Origin: Piromyces finnis finn
Taxonomy: Eukaryota; Fungi; Neocallimastigomycota
Direction: 5' to 3'
Length of the DNA: 64,000 nt
Assembly: GCA_002104945.1 (NCBI GenBank)
Contig: MCFH01000083.1
Span: 62,001 to 126,000, forward strand
The notes under the pieces are model-generated. The model ran no database searches. It saw nothing but the letters and a program-made list of their open reading frames with translations, and was not told where the DNA came from. Below, one piece after another: positions 35,049 through 64,000 of this stretch. Position 1 is the first letter of the stretch; each line of letters opens with the position of its first letter. The translations under genes and the position numbers were made by a program.

Positions 35049-35897
35049 TTATTCTACATTTATATTTGAGTTAATGTAAGAATCATAAGAAAAATACATA
35101 ATATTATAATGAGAATTAATTACATTTATAATGTTATTATACATTACAACAGGATTATTTTCAGTGATATCACTAATTCTTTTATTAATATCATTAATGT
35201 CATATGGAATACCATATTCACCAAGAAAAGATATAATCTTTTTATATATTGGTTTATCTTTAAGTGAATCAATCGATTTTAATGATACCTTTGCATACAT
35301 ATTTGATTGGAGATCTTCACCATACTTATTAACTTCAACATAATGTGTTGCCATATAATAGCTTTCCTTTTTATCTGAAGAAATATAATGAATAACAAAT
35401 ACTCCAGCTCCAAAATAACCTGAAAATTCAGTAAAAAATAAAATGTAAGAATTGACAGAATTTGAAGTACTTTCAATTTTCAAAGGCCATTTAGTATTGA
35501 TATTATAATCTAGTGGTAACTTATTTTGAGATATCCATTCATTTCCTAATAATACTGTATTAGCAATAATTTCATATTTGTATTTATTAGCAACCATTTT
35601 TATGTGTTCAGGTAATGGTAACTTACCTTCAGAACGTAAATGTGTACCACAATAAACATGACCAGGAGTACACTTATTTTTGCAAGTAGTTTTATTCCTT
35701 TTGATTGCTATACAAGTATCATTAATGGAAAGTTTATTCATTTCTTTTATTGGTGGTTGATTACTAATTTCACTTTCTAAATTCTCAATTATACTTTCTT
35801 TTTTAATATCTAAATTATAGCTATTATTGAAAACCTCTACAGCTTTATTAGTGATTTCATCAATAATCGTATTATAATATTTTTCTAAATTTTCCAT
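35049..35897 (-). CDS. Virus-type hypothetical protein with a DUF5763-like C-C-C-H motif
   Basis: CIAIKRNKTTCKNKCTPGHVYCGTH resembles the small CCCH module common in giant-virus proteins; 282 aa, intronless. Confidence 0.6.
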   Translation of the reverse strand: MENLEKYYNTIIDEITNKAVEVFNNSYNLDIKKESIIENLESEISNQPPIKEMNKLSINDTCIAIKRNKTTCKNKCTPGHVYCGTHLRSEGKLPLPEHIKMVANKYKYEIIANTVLLGNEWISQNKLPLDYNINTKWPLKIESTSNSVNSYILFFTEFSGYFGAGVFVIHYISSDKKESYYMATHYVEVNKYGEDLQSNMYAKVSLKSIDSLKDKPIYKKIISFLGEYGIPYDINDINKRISDITENNPVVMYNNIINVINSHYNIMYFSYDSYINSNINVE

Positions 35898-37270
35898 TTT
35901 TTATTTTTTTTTATTTTTTTTTTACTAATTTATTTATACTTTTTAATTTTAGTTTTATATTTAATTTATATTAATATATTTGAAAAATAGAAAAATAAAA
36001 GAGAAAGAAAACAATAAAAGAATTATTTAATTATTTTTATATTAATATATAGAAAAATAAATATCATTTTAAGATATAAAATAATATAATTGGCGAATAA
36101 AAAATAAACTTTAATTTATATTACACATTGTTTTTCAATATAATTGATAATGAAAATGAAATTTCTGAAATATAAAGAAGCTTACTTCTATATTGAAAAT
36201 TTTATTATTTATATTTATATTTGTATTTGTATTTGTATATATATACATATGGATATATATATATAATTTTTAATTTTAAACTTTATACCTATTTTATTAT
36301 TATATAATATAGAATATAAACATTAAACTATTATTTTTTTTTAATAATATACTCTTCATTTTATAATAAAAAAAATAATAAACTTAAATTATTTAATTGA
36401 TATTTATAATAATATTAAGTACCGTTATAATAGCTTTTATAATTCAATCTCTATGTAGAGGTAACTAGTTATATAGTTTGATATAGATTATGTCACAAAG
36501 AGCATTAATGCTGAAGAAATAGTAGGACAGGTCAGGAGGGCCAGCGCAACCAATGGAGATCATAATTTTGTTTCTTGATAAAATTTTGTTCTTTGGCTCT
36601 GTGTCCCATTGGAAGTCAAATACAATTATTATACTTTAGTATAATAATCATGGCTTTCTTATTTTAATTAAAATTACAAGAGTACATATACCCAATTTTT
36701 TATTCATTTGTGTTTATTTAAACATTTTTTTTTTTTTATTTTTTATTTTTAATTTTTAATTTTGTTTTTTTTATAACATGTATTATAATTTTAATTAAAT
36801 TAATAATAAAGTTTAAAAATATTTGATACTGTAAAAAAAAAAAAGGATTATGCCATTGGTTCGAATCCGACTATTTACTTTTTTTATAAATTTATGTTTT
36901 AATTGAACAAACAGTTTAATAAATTATATATAATATAAATATATATATAAATAGAAAATAAATAAATTTATATTAATTTATTTTCCAATCATGTATGTAG
37001 GAAATGTAGGAATGTAGTATAGAACAGAATTAATGAATCTAAATATTCATAATGATTTCTCTTTTTTGTTATTTATTAAAGATATTTTTAAAATACTCAA
37101 TAATTTTAAAATGATTATTTAAATATATATAAATTTATTTATCCTTCACAAAAAATTCAAGTTACCAAGAATTTATTTTGGTCCATTTAATTAATTAATA
37201 TTAAAATTTGATTTTTCATTTTATTAAGTTCCATCATTTCATTTTAATTCATTTTATATAGAATAAAAAT

Positions 37271-38426
37271 ATGACATATTCAGATATTCAAGAACTTTGT
37301 AAATATCGGGAATTCAAAGAAATATATACTGAAGAAAAATTGATTGAAGAGAATCTCCATATGAAGCGATATCAAATTTTACCTGTACGATATATGACAA
37401 ATGAAAATGAAATAGCTAAAAGATTTCTAATTTATCATTCGCCGGGTACTGGGAAATCATTTACAGCTCTATGGATTTTATTGAATTTCATTGATATTTA
37501 TAAAAAACCAAGTATTATATTGGTAAAAAGTAAAGAGGCCATTATGGAATTTAAACAGAGAGTCGCGTTATGGTACGCTTACACATACAATTATCGTCAA
37601 CCTCCAACCGGTATTACCAATTATCACCAATTTATAAAAAGATACATCGAATTTCATACCTACATTACTTTTTGTAAATCCGTTGAAACCATAAAAGATA
37701 TTTCGTTATATGAAAATAGGCTTTTAATCATTGACGAAATACACCATTTTCGAAATACAGTTGGTAATAAAATTATATATAATAAATTACTTAAATTTTT
37801 AAATAACATAAAAGATTCGAGAGTCTTATTTATGTCGGCTACTCCGATTTTCGATAATTATAATGAAATAACAAGTTTAGTAAAATTAATAAAACCTGAT
37901 TTTGATTTCAGTATTAAAATAACACCGAAAAAATTGGAAGAAATAATGAAAGGTCATGTATCGTATTATGGATTAAATCCACCGGACACATCAGTTAATT
38001 TTATAGGTTCTCATGTGCCAAGAATTGAACGCTTTAAAATATTTAAAGTTTCCATGAAAGGATTGCAACTTGAAAATTACAAAACGTTAGCTAGTGAATC
38101 AAAAAGTATATGCAACATTGGAATTAGTCATGTGAAAGCAACGCTTGGTATAATTGGTTTTAAAGAAGAGGATTCACACGATAATTATGATGAAAGTTCA
38201 TCTAACAATATTTCAGATAATAATAATGATGAAAATTCATCTAACAATATTTCAGATGATAATAATGATGAAAATATTTCTATTTCCATTTCAAATGATG
38301 ATGATAATGAAAATTTTTCTGAAAATATGTCAGATGATGAAAATAACGATAATGATTCTGACAATATTTTAAATGATGTTAATAACGATGATTCTAATAA
38401 TAATAATAATAATAATAATTCAGAAG

Positions 38427-38464
<38 letters not shown>

Positions 38465-38501
38465 TCAGAAGATAATAATAATAATAATAATAATTCAGAA
38501 G

Positions 38502-38545
<44 letters not shown>

Positions 38546-38552
38546 TCAGAAG

Positions 38553-38599
<47 letters not shown>

Positions 38600-40813
38600 T
38601 CAGAAGATAATAATAATAATAATAATTCAGATGATCGGTACATTTTAAAAAATGAAAATATTATTAATAGTAACAGTATTATTCAGAATATTATAAGAAA
38701 ACAATCAAAGAAACTTGAAAACTACTGCTGTAAATTACATGAATGCCTTAAAATCATTAATAGTGAAAATAGTCCGGATGGTCCTGTTTTTATTTACTGT
38801 AATATTATTGATGAAGTAGGTATTTATTATTTTGCTGCATTACTCTGTGAAATGGGCTATAAATACATTTATGATAAAAAATCAGCATTAAAATTCGGAC
38901 AAAAGTTATCTTTAAATGAAAATATTAACTATCCGGAATTAAAAGAAATGCGAATAAACAGAAACAAGAAAAAATGGAATTTTACCTTTGTTACCGGAGA
39001 TAAGAGACTATGCCCAAACGTTATGGAACGCTTAGGCATATTTAATGATACAAGTAATAGAAATGGTACAACTATTAAAGTACTTCTTGGAAGTGATATA
39101 TTATCGGAAAGTGTAGATATCATGAATATTCGCCAATTACACATATTGACACCGCACTGGAATTATGAAAAAATTAACCAAATTATCGGCCGAATTCGTA
39201 GAGTGGGATCTCATGACGCTTTACCACCACACCAAAGAAATGTTAATATTTATCTATACATGGCTTATAACAGTGATCATGAATGCGAATATGAAAATTC
39301 GATAAATTACAGCATTGATTATGTTAAGTATATTATTAGCGAAAAAAAGTATAATCAAGCTTTAATGTATAACAACGCCTTACAAAATGCTTCCATTGAG
39401 TCTTTAATATGTGATAATCAGTCAGAAATTAATTCTAATAATACCAACACCAACACTAACACCAACACCAACACCGATACCATAGACAATTTTCAATATT
39501 CCAAAAACTATCTACGTAAAACTCTACCGATATACCTTTCCATAGCATGCAATGAATTTAAAAGTGTATTCGATTCATCTACCTGCTGCTATATAAGTGT
39601 AAACGATTTCAGAAAAAGAGTACCCCTATTAAATACCTTTATAATGAATAAAATTATTGAAATAATTAAATCTAAAAATATTATTATTAATGAAAAAAAT
39701 TTAGAATATTCATGTGCCTTATTTTTCCTTGAATCTGTCCCAAATGTCCATTTTTGTAATAGCGCTAATGTAAGTATAAGCAACCCATCACTTAGTATGC
39801 TTACTCACTACAATCCTAACTACTCTGCATACACACCAAAAAAAATAGCGTCCAAAAAGCACAAAGATAAAACTATCGAATATAACCCTCAAAATGATAA
39901 CCAACTCAGTAAAGCTTTGTTAAATACCGAAAATTCTGAAATTGTAATGAAAATAAAAAATATGGAAGATCTTTTAAATAGTAAATTAATAAAAGAATTT
40001 TACGACAGTATATCTCAACTTACACACACAGAAATCCTCGACATTTTAAAATATAGTCTTAAAAACGATTTAAAGAATTTTAAACAATTATTAAGTCCTT
40101 ACTGGATGGAATATAAAGAATTATTTTATATTTTATATTTTTCGAGCATTAAAAATTCCTCTTATGCTAGTAACAAAAAACGTTCCATTAACGATTTTAG
40201 TAATATGATCATGTATAGCGATAGAAATTTTGAAAATTGGACTCTATTGAAGAATAAGGAATTGAAAAATTTATCCATTGTATTTCAGCGTCATTACAAT
40301 GAAAAAACATCTATACGCATTAATAATCGTCTAAAGTATGTTTATGTATTATGTAATGATTTCACCCTTCGTTATCGTGACTTGCGCAGTGACTTGAATC
40401 TTTATTCGAAAAAAGAAGATGATTCTAATAATCTTAGGAATATAAATCGTGGTAGAAATATTGATAATTTTTATGACAAAAAGGAATTGATAGAAAGGTT
40501 AGTATACTCGGTATGTTTTGACAATCTTGAAGATGAATTGCCTTTAATAGAAAACTATAAAAAAATATCTGTTTCGGACATTACCGATTTACTTGAAAAT
40601 AACACCAATGAAAACACTGATTTAATTGAATATATATTAAATGTTGTAACTAATGATAACATAAATGAATATTGTAGTAAAAGACCTTATCAAGCATTTT
40701 TATTATATACATTACTTTCTTCAATACCATGTTTAATTAAAACAACAAGGTATAATATTATTGATGTTTGGAAAAAGTATTTATTTACTTATAATTTAAT
40801 AGTTGTTTTATAA
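37271..40813 (+). CDS. NCLDV D6/D11-type SF2 helicase (VETF small subunit / NPH-I family) with a poly-Asn insertion
   Basis: FLIYHSPGTGKS (motif I), LIIDEIHHF (II), FMSATP (III), LGSDILSESVDIMNIRQLHILTPHWN (V), QIIGRIRRVGSHDALPPHQRNVNIY (VI plus the NCLDV-typical tail). Confidence 0.88.
38395..38635 (+). repeat. Higher-order microsatellite [(AAT)n-TCAGAAGAT] inside the helicase ORF
   Basis: Encodes (N)n-SED repeats, all in frame. Confidence 0.95.
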
Positions 40814-41214
40814 TTTAAAATATAATTTAAAATATATTTAAAAATATAATTAAAACTTTACTTTTCTTTTATTGTTTAGACTAAATATTTTTTTAAAAAA
40901 TTAAAAAATAAATAAATAAACCTTTTTTTATTATCTTTAATTATTAATTGGTAAAAAAAATTAACAAGTTTACTAAATTATTACAAATTTAGCAAAATAA
41001 TACTTATAATTCTTATTTATATTATTATTTATTTAGTTATTTATATATATAGGAATAGAAAGAAATAGAAGATTTTACATAAATTCTTTCTAAAATATAA
41101 TTAATTTATTATTTTTATATTTTTAATATTTTAATATTTTAATATTTTATTTTCATTATTACTTCATTCTTTTTTTTTTAAAAAAAAAAAAAAGAAAGAA
41201 AATATTAAATATAA

Positions 41215-41216
41215 TG

Positions 41217-41260
<44 letters not shown>
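41215..41260 (+). repeat. (TA)n(TG)n compound microsatellite
   Basis: Directly visible in the sequence. Confidence 0.9.
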
Positions 41261-41437
41261 AATTATAAATAAATTTTTAAAAAAAATAAAATATTCATAT
41301 TTAATAAATTTTAATTATTTCGCAATACTAAAATTGCTTATCTACTAAAATATTTTAATATTTGTATATAGAATTATGTAAATATAACAATTTATAATTT
41401 AAACAAAAATCTAAAACATTACAAATCATATTCTTCT

Positions 41438-42277
41438 TTATAATCTTTCAGTACTACTACGAAGAGAATTAGACGAAATATTAATATCAACAAAATAAGC
41501 TTTGCAAGTAAAATTTACCATTGGTACCCCATTAATCATTCGTTCATTAACTAACACATAACAAACTTTAATAATAGGATAAATATTACCATGAATATAG
41601 CAAAAAGTGTCTTTGGAAAGAAGATCAGCAACTTCTTTTGAATAAACATCACCGCAATACACATTAGTTCCTATTTTGAACTTTTCTTTAATTGGATCCT
41701 TGAAATAACGGAAATTAATATATTCAGCATCTTTACTTTTATTAATTATCCCAGTGTACGTCCAATTTTGAGTGTAAGTTACCTTATTTTTAGTAAGTAA
41801 GTTTGAGATAGGTGAAGTCATATCCATATTCTTTATATAGTTTGAAATTAAATATTTTATTCTTTCATCAACTAATCGAACATGTTCAATAAATTTATTG
41901 GTTGAGGCAGTTTCATTGTTAGATATTTTATGGAAGAAATTGTCTTGAATATAGTTATTTTTATTAAGGTGATAATGTGACATTGGAATGGATAAAGCAG
42001 GTAAATCCGATAAAGATAAATCTGAGGTGTCATTTACAGCGCCGATAACCACATTACTACAGTTATTATAGCATTTAACAACAAATCTGTACATTTTATT
42101 ATTTTTAGGTAAGGGGACAACTTCTTTAAAATTTATGGTATTAACCATAGTTTGAAATACAATGTCTGAATAACATGACGCTAAAACCCTTTTGTAATAA
42201 TCCAAACGAGGATTACTCGATTCATTATTCGACTTAACTAATTTCGTAAGTTGTTCCGAAGATGTTGAATTATTCAT
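41438..42277 (-). CDS. Virus-region hypothetical protein, possibly an OB-fold ssDNA-binding protein
   Basis: 279-aa intronless beta-rich ORF. The C-terminal IYPIIKVCYVLV...VNFTCKAYFV is reminiscent of NCLDV/T7-type SSB strands (weak, by eye). Confidence 0.4.
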   Translation of the reverse strand: MNNSTSSEQLTKLVKSNNESSNPRLDYYKRVLASCYSDIVFQTMVNTINFKEVVPLPKNNKMYRFVVKCYNNCSNVVIGAVNDTSDLSLSDLPALSIPMSHYHLNKNNYIQDNFFHKISNNETASTNKFIEHVRLVDERIKYLISNYIKNMDMTSPISNLLTKNKVTYTQNWTYTGIINKSKDAEYINFRYFKDPIKEKFKIGTNVYCGDVYSKEVADLLSKDTFCYIHGNIYPIIKVCYVLVNERMINGVPMVNFTCKAYFVDINISSNSLRSSTERL

Positions 42278-42819
42278 ACTATTATTTAATATTCTATCCT
42301 ATTTTATTATATTATATTATATAATATTATATAATATTATATTATATTATATTTATTAATATTATATTGTATTTATTAATATTATATAAATATAGTTAAA
42401 ATTTAAATCAATTTATGAAATAATGGAAAGGATTTATAATACAATATTAAAAGAAAATTTTATTTATCATTTTATATATTTTATATCAAACTTTGAATTA
42501 AATTTTAAAAACAAAGCATATTACAATTAACATATCGCTAATTTATAATTAATTAATTAATTAATTAATTTATTTATTAAAAGTATTTACAATTAAATAA
42601 TTCTTTAATATAGTATTAAGTTAAAAAATAGGTAATTTATAATATATAAATTATTATATTATAAATTTATAGTAAATATATTCTATGTAATAAAATATAA
42701 AATAGGTTATATTTTAAAGTTAATGTTTTTTTTTTCTTTATTTATTAAATTATGAAATTCATATATAAATATATAGATATTTTTAATAAATTATAAATTA
42801 TATTTAATGAGGATTTTTT

Positions 42820-43077
42820 TTAAATAATCTTTTTACAATTTAAACAATAATATACTAGCGTAGCTTCTTCGTCACTACGACGAATTTGTATACGTCTAAT
42901 ATCAATGTTGTTACTGTGACATCTTTTACAAAGTAACGAACTATTTGATATATTATTTATTTTATTTTCTAGTAATTCCAATTCTTGTTGCTCCTTTATT
43001 CTATCTTCCTTAAACAAAGAGGATTCTTCAAAAAATTTATCTAATGAATTAATTGATAAATCAGCCATTGCTATCAA
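42820..43077 (-). CDS. Stand-alone TFIIS/RPB9-type zinc-ribbon protein (viral transcript-cleavage factor-like)
   Basis: CKRC...QIRRSDEEATLVYYCLNC retains the four Cys and the acidic DE hairpin. Only ~82-85 aa, lacking the TFIIS N-terminal domains; the likely ATG is at 43068. Confidence 0.85.
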   Translation of the reverse strand: MIAMADLSINSLDKFFEESSLFKEDRIKEQQELELLENKINNISNSSLLCKRCHSNNIDIRRIQIRRSDEEATLVYYCLNCKKII

Positions 43078-43559
43078 ATAAAATTAAATAGTTTAAATAT
43101 AAAGTATAAAAAAAGATTTTGGTTAAAATATTAGTTATTAAATTATCTCTATTTTTATTTATGGTAATCTAAATAAAACAATAAAGATTTATATTATAAT
43201 GAAATAAAAGATATTACAAATATTTTATGTATTTTATAAAGGTAATTAACTTAATATAAATTATAATAAAGATTTATAAATTAAATGATATTTTTCAATT
43301 TTTAATTTAACAAATATTTAAATATTTATTATCATTTTAGAAAAAAAATTTTTTTTTTTTTATTTTTTATTTATTTTTTTTTTTTTTTTTGAATTAATTT
43401 TAATGTTTTAAATAATTATATTAAATATTCAAAAATAAAATATATTAATATAAAATGATATTTATACAAGTTTAAAATAATAATACTAAAATTTTCTGTA
43501 TTATAATTGTTAATGTATTGTTAGTAAAATACAATTTTTTATTAGATAAACTTTAAAAA

Positions 43560-45758
43560 ATGGATATCATTCAATTAATTAATAATTTATTAAGTAATAA
43601 CAAATGCCTATCTAATGAATATGAAATAATAATAAATAATAAAAAATTTTCATTTTTTGAAGGAATCAATATAATTGACTGTAATAAACTTTCCAAAGAT
43701 CAATATGCTGTTAAATGTAAAGATAATATAAAAGTTGACGCAAATTATTCATCATTTTTTTCTCTTTTTAACATATTGGAAAGAAAATCAAAAGAGAAAA
43801 TCTTCAAATATAATTTCGATTTAAAGGATACAACAAAAACAAGCTTTTATATTCCGGTCAATATTTCTATACATACTTTTAAAGAAGTGTATAATAAATT
43901 AATAAAATTAGATTTGCCGAATACTTGCCAATATGTCATTGGTTTTATTGGAGGATTACATTATTATCATTACTTTAATAATGATTGCTACACCGGATCA
44001 TATAATTATAATCAAAATTTAATTAAAATGGATAGGGTTAAAGATATTGAAGATTTAGATAATTATATAATTATAAGATGTTGTCATGATTGTATAAAAA
44101 TCACCCATGATAAAATTGTGTTTTCCGAAAGAGATACGTATGACAATATTATTTGTAGAATATTGCCATGTTTTAATTACACAAATGAACAAATACTAAT
44201 TAGATTTACACCTTGTGATGCTTCTTTTATCTATCCAATATCTATAAACTTTCAATTATTTGATCTAATGCTCTATGAAAATGGTTTTTATCCTTATATA
44301 TATGCCAATGAAAGCGATAGTTTAATAAAGTGCCAAGAAAAATTAGTGTATACAATGAATATTCTTAATAAATCCATTAACATGTTGCTTTACAACAAAT
44401 ACAAGCAATTTACAGAAACTATCCAATTTCAAGATTTAGAGTGGTATATGTACTCGGCTGTTAAAAAAGTGTTGAAATACCTATATTTATTTTATATTGA
44501 CTTCCATATACGTTATTATCAAAGAAATGAACCTTTCAGTACTCCAATTAAAATAAATTACAATAGATTATTTGGAAAATATTATACTAGATATTTTAAT
44601 AATAAAGATAAAGTATTGCCGGTGATTGCTGATAAGGATTACTGCGTCGAAAATAATATTCCGTATGTTCAATGGAATAGCAATTACTATAGAGCTCCGG
44701 AAAATTCGGGATATAAAATAATTCTTTCAACAAATAAAAAATATACAGATAATAACGGAATTCCTAAATGTGTTAAAGTCATAAGAAAGTATAAGGAAAA
44801 AAGGGAAGTTGTCTACTTTAACATAACCCATGAACTAAACGAACATTGTAAAGGCCAATTCCCTTCAAATTTATTTATATCCTATGGCTTTGAATTACTG
44901 CATTTATACCGTGTATATTTCGATATCCCGGAAATATCTAGTAAATTTACCACTTGTCCTAAATGCAACACCTACATTAGCATTCCAAGTCAAAAAGACT
45001 TGGTAAATACCATAAAAGACTTACTTCATCACAACCAATTAAAAATACTAAATAAAAATTACAGTTTCAATGATGTTAACATACTTTCTTTTTCTATTGA
45101 TAACGATATGAATGTATATCCGTATTGCGTTTTTAACCACGTTTACAGTTTTAATCCTTTCATTCCTTTTTTAATAGTTATATTAAACACTTCTAAATTA
45201 TATACATTTCCTAATTATCGATTTGAATTTGTGGTAGGCCCAAATGACAATTGGTTCAATTTTAATGATGATCTTGTACAGGCTATATTTTCTATGTATA
45301 AAAAAAACTCTATTTTAATTATGGATAGTACTAAATTAAATAAATGCATTAAGCAATACGTCTTAGATAATGACACTGCAACCACTACTATTTTAATAGC
45401 AGAAAAAGAATATCCAAATGAAAATTTTTATCTATGGAGATCTATTTATTCAGAAGTAATACCTAAGATACCAATAATAAAGGATGCCGAAGAATTTCAC
45501 AATACCCTGCCATCATTTTCATTTCTATGTAAAACGATTAAAAGTATATCTGCTTTTCATTACAATGCATTGGATGAAAATAATGAAAAATTCATGGTTT
45601 ATGGTGTATGGGAAAATGAAATTTATTACCCATGTAAAGCATCATTGGAGATAGTAAAACCGGATAGCATTAATAAACCTTACTTATTAATAAAAAGAAA
45701 TTTAGATGGAACTGTTTATTCATTTACTAAAGATAGTTCTAATTTTATAGTTTTTTAA
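43560..45758 (+). CDS. Putative early transcription factor large subunit (poxvirus A7L / VETF-L-like)
   Basis: 732 aa, intronless. YYTRY...LPVI...YYRAP...GIPKCVK is a degenerate version of the VETF-L Y.R.C...P.....YY.CP...PCC motif, followed by G.FP.NL; the neighbours are NCLDV transcription genes. Confidence 0.55.
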   Translation: MDIIQLINNLLSNNKCLSNEYEIIINNKKFSFFEGINIIDCNKLSKDQYAVKCKDNIKVDANYSSFFSLFNILERKSKEKIFKYNFDLKDTTKTSFYIPVNISIHTFKEVYNKLIKLDLPNTCQYVIGFIGGLHYYHYFNNDCYTGSYNYNQNLIKMDRVKDIEDLDNYIIIRCCHDCIKITHDKIVFSERDTYDNIICRILPCFNYTNEQILIRFTPCDASFIYPISINFQLFDLMLYENGFYPYIYANESDSLIKCQEKLVYTMNILNKSINMLLYNKYKQFTETIQFQDLEWYMYSAVKKVLKYLYLFYIDFHIRYYQRNEPFSTPIKINYNRLFGKYYTRYFNNKDKVLPVIADKDYCVENNIPYVQWNSNYYRAPENSGYKIILSTNKKYTDNNGIPKCVKVIRKYKEKREVVYFNITHELNEHCKGQFPSNLFISYGFELLHLYRVYFDIPEISSKFTTCPKCNTYISIPSQKDLVNTIKDLLHHNQLKILNKNYSFNDVNILSFSIDNDMNVYPYCVFNHVYSFNPFIPFLIVILNTSKLYTFPNYRFEFVVGPNDNWFNFNDDLVQAIFSMYKKNSILIMDSTKLNKCIKQYVLDNDTATTTILIAEKEYPNENFYLWRSIYSEVIPKIPIIKDAEEFHNTLPSFSFLCKTIKSISAFHYNALDENNEKFMVYGVWENEIYYPCKASLEIVKPDSINKPYLLIKRNLDGTVYSFTKDSSNFIVF

Positions 45759-51481: not shown

Positions 51482-51552
51482 ATTTGAAATATTAGAACAA
51501 TAAAATTATATGTTTACCAAAATATGTATTTAAAATAAAAAATCAATTATAA

Positions 51553-52985: not shown

Positions 52986-53030
52986 TGAAATTTTATTTAT
53001 GCCCTAACCTTTTTAGCATAATAATAATAA

Positions 53031-55630: not shown

Positions 55631-58600
55631 TGTAAAGATATCAAACGCCTCTGTTTGATATCTTTAATGTAACTTAAGCCACAAGTATTATTGTTTAAGT
55701 TACACAAATTATATTCAGAAAAAGAAAATGAGACATAATTTATTTATTAATAATTAAAGTTTAAAACAAAATAAATTATTAATTTATTTTTAATGTTTAA
55801 CAAGTAAATTAATATTCTCAATTTAAATCCCTAGTTTTAGTATTGTTTTTTTTATAGAAATAGATAAATAATAAATGATTAATATATCAATAATACATGG
55901 GCACATATTCAAATTAAATAGTACTTAATTTGAATTGCCAATTGTATTTTACTAAAAATAGTTATAGTTTAAATATTTATTAATAATTAAGATTTTAGTG
56001 TAGATTTTAAATAATAATATATAAGAAATAAATAGTTATAATATAATATAAATGTATTTAGGAAAAATATAAATAGAAGATATTTTTCATCATTTTATCG
56101 ATGTAATTGTTATTATTAAAATTCTATTATAATAAAAGATATTTTATAAAACAATTTTTTATTTTATTTTTTCAAAATCTTGTGTTATTGTAATAGAATA
56201 GATATCCTAATCTATTCTTTCTGTGTCGCCATTACAATAACAATTACCTAACGAAAACCAAGAATACGTTAGGGTATCTACCGCCGAGTAAAAGAAGAAA
56301 AAGAAGGAATAACTACTGGGTTGAAATTGAGTCTACCGCCGAGTAAAAGAAGAAAAAAGAAGGAATAACTACTGGGTTGAAATTGAATCTACCGCCGCCG
56401 AGTGGGAAGAAAGGACCAAGAATAACCATTAAGGATTGATTAGTAGTACAAAACTTGTTCGACACTGCTTTTTGCAGAACGCGTCTGAATAACTTTTGTA
56501 TTGTTAGATATACTAAAATTATCTTTTATAAATAATTAAAAAAAAAAAAAAAAAAAAAAAAATTACTTACTTGAAATAGTAGTAAGAAAACATTTTATTT
56601 ATTTTAGTAAGTTGGAGGGTTTAATTAGTGAATTTGAAAATTTGAATTTGGAAATGGGTGATAGGAATGTGGGTGTTTCCGGGAACTCGGGGAACATTAT
56701 TAATGCTCCACCGATATTCTCTGGTAAACAACGTGAATTAGATGGATTTTTAACTAGAGTGGAGTTGGTATTTCGTACTCGACCGACACTGTACAATACA
56801 GATCGAGTCAAGGTCGACTTCGTTATATCATACTTCTCTGGTAAACCTTTGGAATGGGCTTCAGTGTTGATGAAGAATAATAGTGGGGTTTTAAACCATT
56901 ATGATGAATTTGTAGATAGGTTGAAGGCTAATTTTGGCAGTTATAGATACGATACCGTTGTAGCTAACGGAAAATTAGATAATCTTCGCCAAAGGAAACT
57001 TGGTCAGGTATTAGATTACATTACCGAGTTTCAACGTATTAGCCAAAATTCAAGCTTTAATGATAGCGCAAAAATCTACATGTTTCTGAAAGGTTTATTA
57101 CCACCACTTAGGGAGAAGTTGGCTTTCATTGAATCAAACCCAACTTCAATTGAACAATTGATTTCTTCAACTATTTTAGTTGAAGATATGATGAAAAGGA
57201 ATTCTTTAAGTGAATTTTATTTTAATGGTAGAAGGGCTAATGATCCTATGGATGTGGATGTATTTAAAATTAGTAGAGAGAATAAACGAAAAAGGTATGT
57301 GAATATTCAAGGATCAAGTAAAAATTACAATGAAAACATAGATAACTTTGAAGAAGAAAAGAAAAAAGGGTTATGTTTTCTTTGTAAACAACCGGGACAT
57401 TTAAAATTTAATTGTCCTAATAGAGTAAAGCCCAGAAAAGTGTTAAGAATTGTTAAAGAAAGGACTCCAAAAATTGTTAATCCAAAAATTTACAAAGTTG
57501 GAGTTAAGGGAGTGAAAAGTGATTTAAACCTTGTGGACTTTTACTTGAGTACCAATGAAGTTTCGGAAGTTAAAATTAAGGTTTTAATTGATTCCGGTTC
57601 TGAATTAAATTTCATTAATCCAAGTCTTGCTGAAGAACTTGGTATTAATTTGGAAAAAGTGGAACCATTCCGTGTTTCAGGTGTTAGTGATGGAGTTGTT
57701 AGTGTTTGGGAAAGGACTGAGAAGTGCATGCTCCGTTGCAAAAATCACTTCGAAGTAATTCAACTTTATGGATTACAAGTCCCCGGTGTTGATGTTATTC
57801 TTGGTTTGCCGTGGATAAAGAAGCATAATCCAAATGCTTTCTACGACTCTAAGAAAATCGCTTTTAGTTCTGGTTATTGTGCCAGACATTGTAATAAAGG
57901 CAAAAGAAAGAGAAAACCAAGAAAGAAGTCAAAGAATGATCAGTTAGATCATGATGTTCTCGACCGAAGCTTGACCAAAAAGCCGAAAGTAGATCCCTCT
58001 GTCCCAAAAAATGAAGAAAAAGAATATGTTAAAGGCCGCCTTGTTAGAACCATCAATGATGAAGATGATAGCGATGATGAATATATTAGTTTTAATAAAA
58101 AAGTTAAATGTATTGTAACAAAAATTAATGAAACATGTAATAATGATAACGAATCATGTAGTAATAATAATAATAATGGAAAAGATATTAATAAAGATAA
58201 ATTGGTCGCCGTACCAACCCAATATTTAGAATTTAGTGAAGTATTTAATGAAAAAAATTGTGAAGTGTTACCTCCTCATAGACCTTATGATTGTGAAATC
58301 AAACTTAAAGATGATTCGACTTTATTTTATGGACCTTTGTATCCATTAACTGAAGTTGAAAGAGAGGAACTTAAAAAATATATTGATGATAATTTAAATA
58401 AAGGTTTTATTAGGAAATCATCGTCTCCTGCTGGTGCCCCAATTTTATTTGTTAAAAAGAAGGATGGCTCCCTAAGACTTTGTATCGATTATAGAAAGTT
58501 GAATGATATTACCATTCGTAATTCATATCCTTTACCTTTAATTAGTGACCTTTTGGATAGGGTGAAAAATGCTAAGATTTTTACTAAATTAGACCTTAAA

Positions 58601-61600
58601 TCCGCTTATAATCTTGTTCGTATTAAAGAAGGTGACGAATACAAAACGGCTTTTCGTACTAGATATGGACATTTTGAATATCTGGTTATGCCTTTTGGAT
58701 TAAAGAATGCACCTGCAACTTTTCAACACTTCATTAACGATGTCCTTAGTGACTATTTAGACGATTTTGTTATCTCATATATTGATGATATTCTTATTTA
58801 TTCTAATAATATCGAAGAACATCATGAGCATGTTAAAAAGGTACTTAAGAAACTACTTGAAAATAATCTTTATGTTAAATTAGAAAAATGTGAGTTTGAT
58901 GTTGAGAAAACCACTTTTCTTGGTTATGTCATTTCAAAGGATGGATTGCAAATGGATGAAAATAAAGTTAAAGCAATTCTCGATTGGCCGGTTCCCAAGA
59001 ATGTTAAAGAGGTTCAGTCTTTTATTGGTTTATGCAACTATTACAGAATTTTTATTAAAGACTTTGCTAAAATTGCAAACCCTCTTCACAAACTCACTAG
59101 AAAGAATGTTGCTTTTAACTGGGTGAAAGAAGATCAGGACGCTTTTATTTTATTAAAATCTCTGTTCACGTCAGCTCCTATTCTGAAACATGCGGATAGT
59201 AATAAACAATTTATTGTAGAAACTGATGCTAGTAATTATGCTGTCGGTGCTATTCTCTCTCAAGAATTTGATGGCAAATTACATCCTATTGCATTTCTTT
59301 CTAAAAGTTTGACGAGTTGTCAAAGAAACTATCCTATATATGACAAGGAACTTTTAGCTATTGTAGTTGCTCTTGAAGAATGGCGTCATTATTTAGAAGG
59401 TGCACGCCATCCGTTCATAATTTATACTGATCACAAGAATTTAACATTTCCTAGAAAACCTGAAATGTTATCTCAGAGACAAATTAGATGGAATTTGTTC
59501 TTATCCAGATTTGATTTTAAACTCATTTATAGAGCTGGAAAGAAATCCGGTAAGCCTGATATCCTGTCTCGTAGAAGTGATCATGTAGAGAATAATATTA
59601 ATTCTGATGTTTCTTGTCTTACTATTTCGTTTCATCATAGCGATAACAAACCGTTAATCGATTCTATTTTATTAGAACTTAAAAATGACGATTTGTATAA
59701 TTCTATTGTCCAATTTAAAATGAATGGTTCTGCATGTAATGCACCTATTAAAAATATTGATAAAGTTATTATTGATAACGAGGGATTTTTGTTATATAAT
59801 AATCTTATTTATGTTCCTAAATCTCTTAGGACAAGAGTTTTGGAACTTCATCATGATTCTGTTGCTGCTGGTCATTTCGATATTAAGAAAACCACTGAAC
59901 TGATTTCCAGAAACTTTTGGTGGCCAAGGTTTCATTCAGACGTTAAATCTTTTATCAAATCTTGCGTGACTTGTTGCAAATCCAAAGTCCCCAGACATAA
60001 GCCTTATGGATTGTTATCCCCTTTGGACACTCCCAGTAGGCCCTGGTCTGATATTTCTATTGATTTTATTGTTGATCTTCCTAAGTCCAGAGATATGACA
60101 ACTCTCATGGTTGTTGTCGATAGATTTACTAAATTTGCTCACGCCATTCCTTTACGTTGTCTTCCTACTGCTTCGATTGCTGCTGATGCTTTTATTGCTA
60201 ATGTCTTCCGTTTGCATGGTCTTCCTGATTCCATCATTTCTGATAGAGGCTCGCAATTTACTTCTGACTTTTGGTCAAGACTTTGTGACCTTCTTAATAT
60301 CAATCATTCATTATCAACTGCCAACCATCCGCAGACAGATGGTCAAACGGAGAGGGTGAACGGCATATTAGAACAATATTTCCGTTGTTTTATAAATAAA
60401 AAGCAGAATAACTGGGTTGATCTTATCCCATTTGCTGAATTTGCATATAATAATACTTTACAACAATCTATAAATCAATCTCCATTCTTTGCTAATTATG
60501 GTTTTCATCCAAAGTTCAGCTTAGAAATTCCAGCTAATGATAGACCTAGTAGAGCTGAACAAAGAGTAATTGATATGAATGAAAACTTTAAATTATTAAA
60601 AGAAAACTTAGAAAAAGCAAAAGAAACATATAAGAAATATGCCGATATGAAGAGAATGATTCCCCCGGAGTTCGAAGTGGGAAAGAAGGTATGGTTATTG
60701 AAAGATTCTCCTGGAACTAACCTAAAGAGAAAATTAGCACCTCAAATGCTTGGCCCATTTGAGATAATTGGAAAAGTTAGTTCTCTCGCTTTCAAATTGA
60801 AACTTCCAAAGACAATGAGATGTCATCCAGTCTTTCATGTTTCATTGTTAGAACCATACTTTGAAAACAAGTTTAACGACAGGTCTAATCGTAGGAAGAG
60901 GAACATTCACCTTAACACAGATTTAATTGAAAAAATTCCAGAGAAAATTGAAAAGATGAAATCTGTTAATGGTGAAACATTTTATAAGTTATCATGGAAA
61001 GGATTTGACAAATCCACTTGGATTTCTGAAGATCAGATTCCAGATAAACAATTAATACAAGAGTTTGAAAGAAACTCTAAAAAGTCAAAATATAAGTCGA
61101 ACGACTCCTCCATGAAAATTAGAAAGAATAAAGTTGGTAATCTAATCAAGCACAGATACCAACCATTTGTAATTGAAATTCCTTCGAGTAAAGATTCCTT
61201 ATAAATTAATCTCGCAGGAGCTCGACTTAGAGAGAGAGATTGTAAAGATATCAAACGCCTCTGTTTGATATCTTTAATGTAACTTAAGCCACAAGTATTA
61301 TTGTTTAAGTTACACAAATTATATTCAGAAAAAGAAAATGAGACATAATTTATTTATTAATAATTAAAGTTTAAAACAAAATAAATTATTAATTTATTTT
61401 TAATGTTTAACAAGTAAATTAATATTCTCAATTTAAATCCCTAGTTTTAGTATTGTTTTTTTTATAGAAATAGATAAATAATAAATGATTAATATATCAA
61501 TAATACATGGGCACATATTCAAATTAAATAGTACTTAATTTGAATTGCCAATTGTATTTTACTAAAAATAGTTATAGTTTAAATATTTATTAATAATTAA

Positions 61601-61846
61601 GATTTTAGTGTAGATTTTAAATAATAATATATAAGAAATAAATAGTTATAATATAATATAAATGTATTTAGGAAAAATATAAATAGAAGATATTTTTCAT
61701 CATTTTATCGATGTAATTGTTATTATTAAAATTCTATTATAATAAAAGATATTTTATAAAACAATTTTTTATTTTATTTTTTCAAAATCTTGTGTTATTG
61801 TAATAGAATAGATATCCTAATCTATTCTTTCTGTGTCGCCATTACA
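55631..61846 (+). mobile_element. Complete family A Ty3/Gypsy chromovirus, copy 2, inserted inside the viral block
   Basis: LTRs at 55631-56236 and 61241-61846 appear identical by eye; TSD TATAT (55626-55630 and 61847-61851); PBS ATAACAATTAC at 56237-56247; intact gag-pol. Confidence 0.97.
56612..61204 (+). CDS. Gag-Pol polyprotein of family A copy 2 (1530 aa; DDE intact; GHFG->GHFD in the IN zinc-finger region)
   Basis: Nearly identical to 2231-6823; DISIDFI retained; GAT at 59879-59881 replaces GGT. Confidence 0.97.
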   Translation: MEGLISEFENLNLEMGDRNVGVSGNSGNIINAPPIFSGKQRELDGFLTRVELVFRTRPTLYNTDRVKVDFVISYFSGKPLEWASVLMKNNSGVLNHYDEFVDRLKANFGSYRYDTVVANGKLDNLRQRKLGQVLDYITEFQRISQNSSFNDSAKIYMFLKGLLPPLREKLAFIESNPTSIEQLISSTILVEDMMKRNSLSEFYFNGRRANDPMDVDVFKISRENKRKRYVNIQGSSKNYNENIDNFEEEKKKGLCFLCKQPGHLKFNCPNRVKPRKVLRIVKERTPKIVNPKIYKVGVKGVKSDLNLVDFYLSTNEVSEVKIKVLIDSGSELNFINPSLAEELGINLEKVEPFRVSGVSDGVVSVWERTEKCMLRCKNHFEVIQLYGLQVPGVDVILGLPWIKKHNPNAFYDSKKIAFSSGYCARHCNKGKRKRKPRKKSKNDQLDHDVLDRSLTKKPKVDPSVPKNEEKEYVKGRLVRTINDEDDSDDEYISFNKKVKCIVTKINETCNNDNESCSNNNNNGKDINKDKLVAVPTQYLEFSEVFNEKNCEVLPPHRPYDCEIKLKDDSTLFYGPLYPLTEVEREELKKYIDDNLNKGFIRKSSSPAGAPILFVKKKDGSLRLCIDYRKLNDITIRNSYPLPLISDLLDRVKNAKIFTKLDLKSAYNLVRIKEGDEYKTAFRTRYGHFEYLVMPFGLKNAPATFQHFINDVLSDYLDDFVISYIDDILIYSNNIEEHHEHVKKVLKKLLENNLYVKLEKCEFDVEKTTFLGYVISKDGLQMDENKVKAILDWPVPKNVKEVQSFIGLCNYYRIFIKDFAKIANPLHKLTRKNVAFNWVKEDQDAFILLKSLFTSAPILKHADSNKQFIVETDASNYAVGAILSQEFDGKLHPIAFLSKSLTSCQRNYPIYDKELLAIVVALEEWRHYLEGARHPFIIYTDHKNLTFPRKPEMLSQRQIRWNLFLSRFDFKLIYRAGKKSGKPDILSRRSDHVENNINSDVSCLTISFHHSDNKPLIDSILLELKNDDLYNSIVQFKMNGSACNAPIKNIDKVIIDNEGFLLYNNLIYVPKSLRTRVLELHHDSVAAGHFDIKKTTELISRNFWWPRFHSDVKSFIKSCVTCCKSKVPRHKPYGLLSPLDTPSRPWSDISIDFIVDLPKSRDMTTLMVVVDRFTKFAHAIPLRCLPTASIAADAFIANVFRLHGLPDSIISDRGSQFTSDFWSRLCDLLNINHSLSTANHPQTDGQTERVNGILEQYFRCFINKKQNNWVDLIPFAEFAYNNTLQQSINQSPFFANYGFHPKFSLEIPANDRPSRAEQRVIDMNENFKLLKENLEKAKETYKKYADMKRMIPPEFEVGKKVWLLKDSPGTNLKRKLAPQMLGPFEIIGKVSSLAFKLKLPKTMRCHPVFHVSLLEPYFENKFNDRSNRRKRNIHLNTDLIEKIPEKIEKMKSVNGETFYKLSWKGFDKSTWISEDQIPDKQLIQEFERNSKKSKYKSNDSSMKIRKNKVGNLIKHRYQPFVIEIPSSKDSL

Positions 61847-62170
61847 TATATATGTATTTAATAAAAATATTATTAATCATATTATTAATAAAAATAAAAA
61901 TAAATATTGTATATTGTACATATAGGAATAAATTTTACTTTATAGTTTTATTTAATTTTTTCATTGATAAATTTATAAATATATACTCATTTGTCAATGG
62001 TTTTTATTATGATATTAAGCAATCTTTTTATAAATCTATTATTATATAAAATAAGAAAATATTTTAAATTGTATTTTTTTAAAAAATCAATTAAATTATT
62101 TTTTTTTTTTAAAAAAAAAAAAAAACAACTGATATTAAGTTGTAAAATTTATAGATATTATTCATAGATA

Positions 62171-64000
62171 TTATTCATACATAGTTGTTTGTATACCAAT
62201 AGAATTTAAATATGAATTCATGATATTAAAACTATTTGATATTGTTAGAGATTTTGTTGCAGAATTACAGCATGTTTCTGATGTACTTATTGAATGACAA
62301 ATATTACAATATTTAATTTCCATAATATCTGTATTATTTCGAAACATATCTTTTAATATTGCATTGACTCCGTGTGCTACTAATGCATCTTTTTCCATTT
62401 CTCCTATTCTCAATCCACCATTATTAGCTTTTCCTTCGGTTGGTTGTTTGCTAATAGAATTAACATTTCCGGTAATTCGATAAAACATTTTTTCTTCCAC
62501 TTGATGTTGTAAAGCTGTATAGTAGCATACGCCTACAAACGCAGATCCTATATTCATTCCTGTTTTGGCATCAATCATTTTTTCCATGATCGGTATTCCA
62601 CTTTCAATAAATGTTGATCTGAAATTTTTTATATCATTACTTTCTATGGAAGCATCAAAAAATGTTCCAAATTTCTGAGGATCAATCACCATACACTTAC
62701 CGACGTACATTTCGATTAAATGGCCAACTGTCATTCTGGATGGAAAGGCATGTGGATTAACAATGATATCTGGTATTATTCCATGTTCCGTTTTAGGTAA
62801 TACATCCTCTGGTAATATTGATCCAATGACTCCCTTTTGAGCATAGCGACTAGCAAACTTATCTCCTTGCTGTGGTTTATATATATGCTGTACTTCCACA
62901 CAACAATAACAAATATCATCTTTAATAAAGGTAGTACAGCGATCAACAATAACCGGCTTTCTAAAAATATTTTCTATATCTGAAACTTCGTTTTTAATAA
63001 AATTGTATTTTCTAAATAATGGTTCATTACTACTGTATACATTTTGTGCAATCGGTGTATTTGGTTTTGGCAATCCATTTTCATAATTTTCATTTATATT
63101 CAATAAAATTTCTTCCTTAGTATTGTAGGAAATATATTGGTATCTATATTTAATATTACTAAATAAGCCATTTTCTATACTTTTAGCATTGAATATGACA
63201 CTATCTTCTTGATTATTTCCAAATGCCATAATAGCTACCACCACATTCTGACCACTAAATCTATGATAAGTATTATTATTTGTTATTGCTGATGATGTTG
63301 TCGTTGAGTTATTATTACTGTTATTTTCATCTTTTTCAATGTTTATATTTGTAAGAAGGTCAATTCGGCTTCTAAATTCGTCGTTATTTAATTTTATATT
63401 TTTTTTCAATTTAATATGACTATTTTTGTTAGTGTCATCTGAATAAGAATTGTTTTCATTTATCATTTCAAATCCGTTTTCATCATTTTCATCATCAATA
63501 TTTATAAATAGATTAAATAGATTATTCGAATTATTATTGGGATTGTTTAATAAAATGCTTAAGGGATGATAATGACATACTCTACGTGATAAAATAGATT
63601 CTAATTTGGTCATACAAAATGGACGTTGGGCATTAATTAATCTTCTTGAGTTATCATTAAATTGAAATATTGTACTATCATTCGACATACACTGTTTCGT
63701 CATACCGGCTTGAAATGTTAGTCTTGGAACATGATTGTTTCCTGGAAATGGTGAAAGTGCACTGATTAGACCAAACACAAAATTTGGATTTATTTCTTCA
63801 TATTTATATTCAGTATTACATTTGTATTCAGAAATATCAATAAATCTTACGCCTATTTCAATTCCATCTTTTAAAACTTTTATTGGCCTCATAATTCTTC
63901 CTTCATCCGTAAATAGATAGAACGCTGTATTATCAAATAGACAACTAATAAATGGATAAGTTAATTTCAATTCTTTGTAGGTATGTTCGACAAAGTCAAT
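62171..64000 (-). CDS. rpb2: Viral-type RNA polymerase second-largest subunit (RPB2), C-terminal part; ORF is open to the window edge
   Basis: GDKFASRYAQKG, PDIIVNPHAFPSRMTVGHLIE, LQHQVEEK, QPTEGKANNGGLRIGEMEKDALVAHG. It is far more diverged than a fungal RPB2, intronless, and has an Asn-rich insertion. Confidence 0.93.
   Translation of the reverse strand: MDFVEHTYKELKLTYPFISCLFDNTAFYLFTDEGRIMRPIKVLKDGIEIGVRFIDISEYKCNTEYKYEEINPNFVFGLISALSPFPGNNHVPRLTFQAGMTKQCMSNDSTIFQFNDNSRRLINAQRPFCMTKLESILSRRVCHYHPLSILLNNPNNNSNNLFNLFINIDDENDENGFEMINENNSYSDDTNKNSHIKLKKNIKLNNDEFRSRIDLLTNINIEKDENNSNNNSTTTSSAITNNNTYHRFSGQNVVVAIMAFGNNQEDSVIFNAKSIENGLFSNIKYRYQYISYNTKEEILLNINENYENGLPKPNTPIAQNVYSSNEPLFRKYNFIKNEVSDIENIFRKPVIVDRCTTFIKDDICYCCVEVQHIYKPQQGDKFASRYAQKGVIGSILPEDVLPKTEHGIIPDIIVNPHAFPSRMTVGHLIEMYVGKCMVIDPQKFGTFFDASIESNDIKNFRSTFIESGIPIMEKMIDAKTGMNIGSAFVGVCYYTALQHQVEEKMFYRITGNVNSISKQPTEGKANNGGLRIGEMEKDALVAHGVNAILKDMFRNNTDIMEIKYCNICHSISTSETCCNSATKSLTISNSFNIMNSYLNSIGIQTTMYE

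Follow-up and report, generated by a model that had tools for sequence, protein, structure and literature searches.

Gene content of the locus

The right-hand part of the window (the whole 64-kb stretch of Piromyces finnis DNA that was analysed), positions 35049-64000, was found by ORF calling to carry eleven intronless ORFs on both strands (Table 1), in line with the initial annotation, which had reported at least eight adjacent intronless genes. The size of at least 29 kb given there includes 6.2 kb of inserted Ty3 retrotransposon and the element proper is therefore 22.7 kb, but its integrated state and its derivation from a giant virus were upheld. Coding density is 76% with the Ty3 excluded. 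Neither tRNAs, Rfam families nor a long inverted repeat marking an end were found in the window, and none of its genes was identified as a primase, as a guanylyltransferase or as the small subunit of VETF.

Table 1. Features of the block, with positions counted from the first base of the window.
Feature	Position	Strand	Remarks
o282, 282 aa, left end of the element seen	35049..35897	-	N-terminal CCCH-type motif
TAAAATGA motifs, 12 non-coding copies, dispersed	36064..53567		First bases and strands: 36071-, 36363-, 37107+, 37223-, 37246-, 37256-, 42474-, 43339-, 43451+, 46091+, 52045-, 53560+
D6/D11-type SF2 helicase, 1180 aa	37271..40813	+	Nearest solved structure vaccinia NPH-I
o279, 279 aa, putative ssDNA-binding protein of giant-virus type	41438..42277	-	
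Stand-alone TFIIS zinc ribbon	42820..43068	-	Acidic DE pair; Pfam E 6.7e-10
VETF-L, early transcription factor large subunit	43560..45758	+	TBP-like domain; predicted fold
RPB1-C, C-terminal subunit of split RPB1	46190..47839	+	In-frame stop 47567-47569
PolB, family B DNA polymerase, Pimascovirales-related	48191..51481	-	Motifs intact
o146, orphan ORF, adjoins PolB upstream	51553..51993	-	TAAAATGA at -53
o194, orphan ORF	52401..52985	+	No family match
Tandem array of an AT-rich 20-bp repeat, in the o194-D5 spacer	53024..53174		
D5-type SF3 helicase	53639..55426	+	Walker A/B and motif C
Host Ty3 LTR retrotransposon between D5 and RPB2	55631..61846	+	LTRs and TSD
RPB2, 3' part	62171..64000	-	Open at window end; Pfam E 4.8e-57

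The profile matches of the TFIIS ribbon and RPB2 confirmed the identities proposed for them earlier, as did those of PolB (Pfam E 1.5e-66, with the full set of exonuclease and polymerase motifs), the D5 helicase (NCBIfam primase_Cterm E 3.3e-38; ASFV C962R E 1.3e-6) and the SF2 helicase (vaccinia NPH-I, E 2.7e-18), which contains an in-frame Asn/Ser/Asp repeat insert. PolB carries the Pfam DNA_pol_B and exonuclease domains and has no match to the protein-primed family, and profile searches detected no primase domain on D5. RPB1-C was also correctly named (Pfam E 5.6e-5, PDB E 2.8e-6), but it is not intact, with a stop at codon 460 after which the conserved tail stays in frame to 47839. A short-read contig agrees with this stop with 0 differences, and four other contigs have a sense codon; the gene also holds an in-frame microsatellite insert of 156 nt. 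Among solved structures, RPB2 and RPB1-C match archaeal and eukaryotic polymerases best, and in published RPB1 and RPB2 trees the element genes fall outside Pol I-III (PMC7017919).

The VETF-L-like protein (732 aa) has no sequence match in Pfam or PDB, and it was the fold search with its model (pLDDT 62) that substantiated the assignment. Foldseek returned E 3e-14, with best matches in marseille-, pitho- and iridoviruses, and vaccinia 7amv_K at E 2e-4, followed by TBP. As modeled, the protein has the VETF large subunit fold, which is new relative to published descriptions. Its cluster has 80 members, and 12 of the 15 members listed sit on contigs of 36-108 kb.

Likewise new to published descriptions is o279, likely a ssDNA-binding protein of giant-virus type, with Atlas scores of 0.91-0.95 to Nucleocytoviricota clusters, some of which hold DUF2738 (10-13% of members) or Pox_I3 (12%); no Pfam or PDB match was obtained for the family. 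A 99% copy of o279 is present on another contig, and in gene model P0286 the TFIIS ribbon is fused to an o279 homologue, showing that the neighbourhood is conserved. The orphan o146 gave no family match in profile searches.

The C-terminal domain of o282 is beta-rich with no matched fold. Its model (pLDDT 72) found no fold match (at best Foldseek E 0.08 and Z 4.3), which does not imply a new fold, and the structure search gave no match to a nuclease or recombinase. The DUF5763 link suggested before is a lead rather than a firm assignment, as 1 of 22 family members matches (E 0.0034) and the Atlas score is 0.87.

The inserted Ty3

The retrotransposon has an intact gag-pol of 1516 aa (56654-61204) in Ty3 order, LTRs identical at 606 of 606 positions and a 5-bp TSD, TATAT, and its insertion is very recent. 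The initial annotation had placed a host chromovirus with a clean TSD between D5 and RPB2; site and TSD were correct and the element is a Ty3, whereas the chromodomain is visible by eye only, without a Pfam match at E 0.05. The insert shares 97.4% identity with a copy in the host flank, and because a member of this host family has inserted into the block with a TSD, the block resides in the chromosome, as had been claimed. The RPB1-C stop and the Ty3 insertion mean that the present copy is disabled.

A promoter-like motif

The motif TAAAATGA occurs upstream of 7 of the 10 genes, at varying distance 50-200 nt from the ATG, a frequency reached in 0 of 5000 shuffles, the motif having been picked from the same upstream regions. 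It is also found upstream of 2 of 5 flank genes, and a single base separates it from TATATAAAATTGA, which has been proposed as the ancestral form (PMC5294985). Judged by its sequence and placing, TAAAATGA looks promoter-like, resembling giant-virus early promoters, and is absent from published descriptions.

Phylogeny of PolB

Over the aligned parts PolB is 100% identical to P0001, a protein named as from P. finnis, which agrees with an anaerobic gut fungus as host. The gut-fungus PolB proteins form a clade with 100% support, and all three polymerase motifs are retained in 23 of 23 relatives. A baculovirus-rooted tree, in which the long outgroup branch fell with the fungal clade, was for that reason set aside for rooting, and the tree was rebuilt without the baculovirus. 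In this quick tree of 24 rows, with no named pithovirus, PolB groups with three iridoviruses and Lausannevirus at 98% SH-aLRT, a marker placement that points to Pimascovirales. The comparison with host polymerases called for in the initial annotation rejected a grouping with Pol delta (AU p=1.9e-7). Thus the PolB trees and the VETF-L fold search bear out a Nucleocytoviricota origin, and the core informational genes are of viral, not host, ancestry, as evident from the PolB AU test, the VETF-L fold and the NPH-I match.

Copies and unit size

Dozens of near-identical copies of the element were found, some on contigs of 0.4-4 Mb. PolB copies differ by 11-15%, and o282 has four copies at 99-100% identity in P. 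finnis, two of them on contigs of equal size. All named sources among its 31 homologues are anaerobic gut fungi, and these homologues sit on contigs equal in size to those with PolB or VETF matches; o282 is also present on two contigs, 42.5 and 52.8 kb long. On single N. lanati contigs two copies of the gene are separated by 17 and 20 accession numbers, 'same contig' being deduced from equal contig sizes and accession spacing. The repetition suggests either repeats at the termini or units of about 40 kb arranged in tandem, and o282 likely sits in such a terminal repeat or repeated unit. Of 39 differences between copies 25 fall at third codon positions and one at a second, and this bias, with the PolB motifs kept throughout, indicates sequence divergence under constraint.

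Relation to known elements

The block is genuine and of giant-virus origin, but already known: the same elements, from the same species and with the same gene order, have been described under the name of fundsalphaviruses (PMC7017919), and the novelty implied by the initial annotation does not hold. Fundsalphaviruses, catalogued as viral fossils with 6 copies in P. finnis and 26 in Neocallimastix californiae, have the same hosts and the genes DNAP, D5, D6/D11 helicase, RPB2 and split RPB1, and in Fig. S2 of Gong et al. the labels of one P. finnis locus follow each other in this order, with a Ty3 between RPB2 and D5 and an ABC transporter flank (PMC7017919). The linkage of D5, D6/D11 helicase, RPB2 and a separate RPB1-C is found here too, and PolB clade and listed host identify the block, at the level of sequence, as a fundsalphavirus with no difference in kind. 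A like-ordered locus has MTase, RP1n and UDG beyond RPB2; SAM methyltransferase and RPB1-N are linked in fundsalphaviruses, and RPB5 in some hosts (PMC7017919). Gong et al. label VETF-L merely as a fungus-specific protein and give no TFIIS, SSB-like gene, repeated end gene, promoter motif or capsid-less reading for these loci (PMC7017919). In the literature searched, which lies outside most subscription journals, 'fundsalphavirus' occurs in one paper only and no capsid-less replicon is described.

The 11 ORFs, from 22.7 kb of an element of probably about 40 kb, comprise replication and early-type transcription genes only and gave no match to a capsid, packaging ATPase, late factor or element integrase; no transposase is present in the window and its only integrase belongs to the inserted Ty3. 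Polintons/Mavericks are rejected on this ground and because PolB is not protein-primed. The gene maps of Gong et al. show no capsid, packaging or late-gene label, and no integrase as a constant label, near fundsalphavirus polymerases (PMC7017919). NCLDV-like regions of the moss Physcomitrium patens, which fall inside the fundsalphavirus clade (PMC7017919), are also multi-copy (61 loci), with PolB, split RPB1, RPB2, TFIIS and UDG and without capsid, packaging ATPase or integrase (PMC4083422). Their consensus is a compact 13 kb in which terminal repeats were not found, whereas the fungal element has longer genes, wider spacers and a repeated end gene; Maumus et al. considered it unlikely that the moss relatives derive from a (mitochondrial) plasmid (PMC4083422).

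Pimascovirales (Iridoviridae, Marseilleviridae and pithovirus-like viruses) share the PolB clade, the VETF-L fold and a promoter core of AAAAT(T)GA type (PMC5294985), but they are at least 100 kb and virion-forming, with capsid and late genes, none of which is among the 11 ORFs. Mycodnaviridae are likewise integrated Nucleocytoviricota of zoosporic fungi; according to Myers et al. 2026 they are MCP-defined, up to 350 kb, basal to Imitervirales and hosted by Chytridiomycota, Monoblepharidomycota and Blastocladiomycota (PMC13533422). The window by comparison has no MCP, and its PolB lies with Pimascovirales in trees that contained no Mycodnaviridae sequence.

In yeast virus-like elements the polymerase is protein-primed and depends on a terminal protein. 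Membership of this group is rejected, as PolB is not protein-primed and D5 is present; the fungal element further differs in its delta-like PolB, VETF-L, TFIIS and Pimascovirales ancestry, the yeast RNA polymerase being poxvirus-related. For the working of the element they nevertheless appear to be the best analogue: the pGKL2 type is capsid-less fungal DNA with a two-part RNA polymerase and a D6/D11-like helicase (PMC6211774), and an own RNA polymerase, such a helicase and a shared upstream TGA motif are found here as well. The pGKL promoter is poxvirus-early-like with a TGA core, 20-40 nt upstream as against 50-200 nt here (PMC6211774). Yeast virus-like elements are linear cytoplasmic DNA with terminal inverted repeats; a feature of the gut-fungus element that might correspond is the end gene recurring on single contigs.

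Nature of the element

The block may be the integrated form of a replicon that has no capsid, transcribes its own genes and works like the yeast virus-like elements, a reading we hold to be about as probable as all others together. The element would be small, about 40 kb, and descended from the iridovirus/marseillevirus/pithovirus branch; we infer both its lack of a capsid and its terminal repeats. VETF-L is predicted to recognise TAAAATGA and then recruit the split RPB1/RPB2 polymerase; the SF2 helicase and TFIIS would assist, as would a cap methyltransferase known from the published loci beyond the window. PolB, the D5 helicase, the likely ssDNA-binding protein and a uracil-DNA glycosylase (again from the published loci) would copy the DNA. 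Having its own transcription and replication machinery, the element might live in the cytoplasm, as yeast virus-like elements do, and be inherited inside the fungus, with repeated capture into chromosomes, probably via host repair, and subsequent decay of the copies.

Somewhat less probable is the wider proposal that fundsalphaviruses are a living class of such ~40-kb replicons and not giant-virus fossils. They would have been reduced from Pimascovirales to early transcription and replication genes and, as yeast killer elements do, would bear lectin or chitin-binding cargo close to their termini. Maintained in the fungi of rumen and hindgut, they would give rise to dozens of copies in the chromosomes and constitute a second, independent origin of 'virus-like elements' on a D5/PolB giant-virus chassis.

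To our knowledge, pithovirus-like viruses assemble their virions without the standard capsid protein and lack A32, so structural genes of the element could be unrecognisable. In the main rival reading, which we consider rather unlikely, the block is the core of a larger pithovirus-related virus that forms virions in gut fungi; this core has integrated repeatedly, and the structural genes lie elsewhere or are too divergent. Gong et al. and the initial annotation share this reading, and the cross-species transmission among six fungal phyla inferred by the former is more easily explained by a particle (PMC7017919). The Pimascovirales affinities of PolB and VETF-L agree with it, the sister rows L080 and L124 resemble ordinary large-virus contigs (RCC1, kinase, RING and DUF5763 genes), and purifying selection among copies is equally expected. 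On the other hand, the same small gene set recurs across fungi and moss, the end gene comes back at an interval of 17-20 genes, and the A32 and MCP trees of Gong et al. hold no match from any of 14 host species even though pithovirus, cedratvirus and orpheovirus MCPs are included (PMC7017919). Neocallimastigomycota are absent from the matches that Myers et al. name for their MCP screen (PMC13533422). Searches with PolB, VETF-L and o282 patterns found no close relative in IMG/VR; prokaryote genomes had none, plasmids yielded bacterial and archaeal PolB only, and generic PolB patterns retrieved only distant polymerases among the metagenome matches listed. Viral ancestry was correctly recognised in the initial annotation, but its view of the block as part of a giant virus that infects rumen fungi is doubtful because the family looks small and multi-copy, with some 17-20 genes and no recognised virion genes.

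A giant nuclear transposon with its own polymerase, an unseen integrase and o282 in terminal repeats is less probable still. The many near-identical copies, some on contigs of megabase scale, their similar depths and the near identity of o282 at four places as against the divergence of PolB would suit it, but neither the window nor the published maps, as a constant label, show an integrase or transposase (PMC7017919), o282 resembles no nuclease or recombinase, and an RNA polymerase, VETF and cap enzyme of its own would be of little use to a nuclear element (as argued in PMC4083422). Divergent host paralogues, which the structure matches of RPB2 and RPB1-C might suggest, or foreign DNA mis-assembled onto a host contig are very improbable given the rejected Pol delta grouping, the viral VETF-L fold, the host Ty3 with its TSD inside the block, and equivalent loci in four gut-fungus species among the PolB relatives found here and in five in the table of Gong et al. 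(PMC7017919).

If the elements are capsid-less replicons, a giant-virus lineage has been reduced to a plasmid-like state, RNA polymerase, VETF-L, helicase, TFIIS and one promoter make up a minimal viral early-transcription kit, and the capsid-less moss insertions are explained. Anaerobic gut fungi can be cultured, but we know of no good genetic tools for them, and a native replicon that brings along its promoter would be useful in this respect.

In run X1 the contigs of the present copy have depths of 272-300 and those of other copies 142-217 (8 pieces among the matches listed); depth is not copy number, but with depths so similar no high-copy free form shows there. None of the runs that contain these sequences is registered as RNA; run X3, which is presumably RNA but may be DNA, contains low-depth contigs identical to the PolB of the present copy, together with contigs of other copies.

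Gene content of the element

From 35049 to the end of the window, which is very AT-rich (GC 10-35%), 11 ORFs without introns were found on both strands, together with one Ty3 element. Pfam matches were obtained for PolB (E 1.5e-66), RPB2 (E 4.8e-57) and TFIIS (E 6.7e-10), and the SF2 helicase was also confirmed by Pfam, with vaccinia NPH-I as the closest match (E 2.7e-18); the Pfam matches of RPB1-C, a part of the split RPB1, and of D5 were weak. D5 matched primase_Cterm (E 3.3e-38), its match to ASFV C962R was confined to the helicase part, and no primase domain was detected when D5 was searched for one. PolB, D5, the helicase, RPB2 and TFIIS all keep their catalytic motifs.

The 732-aa protein gave no match by sequence. 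When a structure model of it (pLDDT 62) was used for a fold search, viral early transcription factor large subunits were matched (E 3e-14), with Tunisvirus, pithoviruses and iridoviruses at the top, and a comparison with the PDB matched vaccinia VETF-L and TBP. The giant-virus-type genes and inserted Ty3 element observed in the initial annotation were confirmed. In language-model features the 279-aa protein o279 is close to SSB clusters of giant viruses (0.91-0.95; 10-13% of cluster members carry DUF2738 or Pox_I3), and profile searches gave no support for its identity as an SSB. Microsatellite-like inserts that keep the reading frame open are present in three of the genes (see table).

Features of the window and its flanks
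Feature	Position	Strand	Remarks
Second full copy of the Ty3 family	1264-7464		intact 1516-aa ORF; 97.4% identical to the insert
gag ORF of a different element	7460-8182	-	
Partial third Ty3 copy	10363-12050		93%
151-bp direct repeat	13983 and 18256		flanks the seryl-tRNA synthetase-like ORF region
Short ORF, similar to seryl-tRNA synthetase tail	16691-16885	+	by eye; SerS label agrees (PMC7017919)
Host ABCB-type transporter	20132-24079	+	
Two long intronless ORFs	26417-33064	+	1537 and 631 aa
Cysteine-rich secreted-type protein	33662-34380	+	split, two overlapping frames of 143 and 112 aa
Insert in helicase	38395-38626		microsatellite-like
Insert in RPB1-C	46923-47078		microsatellite-like
Insert in PolB	50330-50430		microsatellite-like
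Ty3 insert	55631-61846		LTRs identical (606/606 bases); TATAT duplication

Relatives and prior description

Of 491 proteins found with PolB as query, the 23 best matches were 49-100% identical; 12 of these 23 are species-named, and every one of the 12 belongs to an anaerobic gut fungus (P. finnis 3, Anaeromyces robustus 2, Neocallimastix lanati 6, Piromyces sp. E2 1). One homologue, P0001, is identical to the window's PolB over the aligned parts. Fourteen further polymerases (P0024-P0037; 29-36% identity, 630-890 aa) form a wider clade with the gut-fungus copies (99%), and are likely to be relatives in other hosts; one of them sits on a 43-kb contig. In a 24-row PolB tree, which included no named pithovirus, the fungal clade plus two metagenome rows joined three iridoviruses and Lausannevirus (98% SH-aLRT). 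The metagenome polymerases, L080:9560-12826 and L124:7294-10584, are sister to the fungal clade (96%), and their contigs are perhaps from pithovirus-like viruses. RCC1, kinase, TFIIS, RING and DUF5763 genes lie near PolB on these contigs.

The element had been described before. In 2020, Gong, Zhang and Han reported "fundsalphaviruses" from 14 species of fungi, with Pithovirus and the moss insertions as relatives, and counted six copies of the polymerase in P. finnis and 26 in N. californiae (PMC7017919). Their Fig. S2 labels a P. finnis locus with UDG, RP1n, methyltransferase, RPB2, Ty3 domains, D5, POL, RP1c, a fungus-specific protein, DEXDc, ABC transporter and SerS, which is the window's order reversed, with a row assignment that is possibly off because the labels come from the PDF text (PMC7017919). 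The idea of an unrecorded lineage was therefore not borne out.

State of the copy

RPB1-C carries an in-frame stop at codon 460, and its conserved tail runs on behind the stop. The stretch with the stop equals a short-read contig of depth 272 with 0 differences, and four other contigs have a sense codon there, so that the lesion is real and specific to this copy, with short-read support that is not independent because the window itself may derive from that run. Summed read depth in coding bins was 1,100-2,050 versus 272-300 for the window's copy, which agrees with several copies. Differences between copies fell on third (25), first (13) and second (1) codon positions (p 8e-5; 39 of the 40 differences listed, with 565 more, the 39 coming from two paralogue contigs and one from a third being dropped), and the copies therefore diverged while functional. 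The Ty3 family is recently active.

Promoter-like motif

Of 10 genes, 7 have the motif TAAAATGA in sense orientation in the 250 nt upstream of them, a count reached in 0 of 5000 shuffles, and 2 have it in antisense; its discovery was made in the same upstream regions on which this enrichment was counted. The motif occurs 12 times in the 5,471 non-coding bases of the element versus 3 times in 11,443 flank bases. In a motif-blind control of 500 draws, four shared 10-mers were reached in 0, 9-mers in 10 and 8-mers in 53. The context, ATATATAAAATGAT, resembles the mimivirus early motif AAAATTGA and a proposed ancestral motif, TATATAAAATTGA (PMC5294985), as well as the yeast element motif ATNTGA (PMC6211774).

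Four minus-strand copies point into a gene-free stretch (36363-37256), possibly a decayed gene, in which a short patch at about 36480-36630 is richer in GC and GGTTCGAATCC, at 36858-36868, resembles a tRNA B box; tRNA and Rfam searches of the stretch gave no match.

Extent and organisation

Four copies of o282, the leftmost element gene seen, were found at 99-100% identity, two of them on equal-sized contigs and one on a contig equal in size to that bearing a 99% copy of o279. The gene has 31 homologues, with PolB or VETF-L matches on equal-sized contigs in five cases, the window's own aside. Since these matches recur in this way, o279 as well as o282 is part of the element, and its left edge is thus seen at or left of 35049; the host-type secreted gene to the left ends at 34380.

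Two N. lanati contigs each have two occurrences of an identical o282 homologue, separated by 17 and 20 accession numbers. With 2.1 kb per gene, as in the window, this gives a unit of 35-42 kb. Such spacing would imply terminal repeats or a tandem arrangement, and an N. californiae contig of 40.3 kb with POL at its start and D5 at its end (PMC7017919) fits a circular or tandem unit. At 90% identity, 80 proteins from Neocallimastix assemblies fall into one VETF-L cluster. Of its members, 12 of the 15 listed are on contigs of 36-108 kb, and 11 of the 15 o282 members listed are on contigs of 41-87 kb; such contigs could be either unresolved repeats or free molecules.

Readings of the element

Among the 11 element ORFs in the window neither a capsid gene nor A32 was found, nor any late factor or integrase, and the moss regions likewise are without them (PMC4083422). 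Among all labels of the A32 and MCP trees of Gong et al. none is of the 14 host species (PMC7017919), and the account of MCP matches in Myers et al. gives other phyla only, gut fungi being absent from it (PMC13533422). Judged from an incomplete copy, the likeliest reading, in our view an even bet, is that the family is a capsid-less replicon. It would retain only early transcription and DNA replication functions, would replicate outside the nucleus, and would have been captured into chromosomes again and again, the window's copy being one capture, since disabled. That fundsalphaviruses are such replicons we rate a little short of even; whether they are is the point of interest, and a testable question.

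In short-read run X1 no form of excess depth was seen, and the genes seen include no identified primase or capping guanylyltransferase; both points count against the replicon reading. Pithovirus-like particles are not known to be built with the standard capsid, and this too counts against it. That the copies are recurrent core fragments of a larger virus is the main rival, and less likely. A giant transposon of the nucleus, set beside the same lack of integrase, is less probable still. Host paralogues or mis-assembly deserve hardly any credence: union of the fungal PolB clade with Pol delta was rejected (AU test, p 1.9e-7), which upholds the giant-virus ancestry proposed initially, and residence in the host chromosome was supported as well.

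Flanks and possible cargo

Two of the three flank copies of TAAAATGA precede the 1537-aa lectin gene (at -63) and the 143-aa secreted gene (at -135), and the element or its cargo may therefore reach further left. The lectin ORF (26417-31030) has a signal-like N-terminus. A Ser/Thr-rich region in it matches NF033849 (E 1.2e-5), and its B-lectin domain, of the mannose-binding type, matches the putidacin L1 family (E 5.8e-7). This ORF could belong to the host or be cargo of the element; the map of an Anaeromyces copy in Gong et al. has a B_lectin label between POL and helicase (PMC7017919). The split of the secreted gene lies at a run of A, and is either a real frameshift or an assembly error. 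In Fig. S2, many Neocallimastix copies have ChtBD1 (chitin-binding) labels on their flanks, and the labels of the Zancudomyces copy include LysM, ChtBD1 and GH18 zymocin-alpha (PMC7017919), which recalls yeast killer elements.
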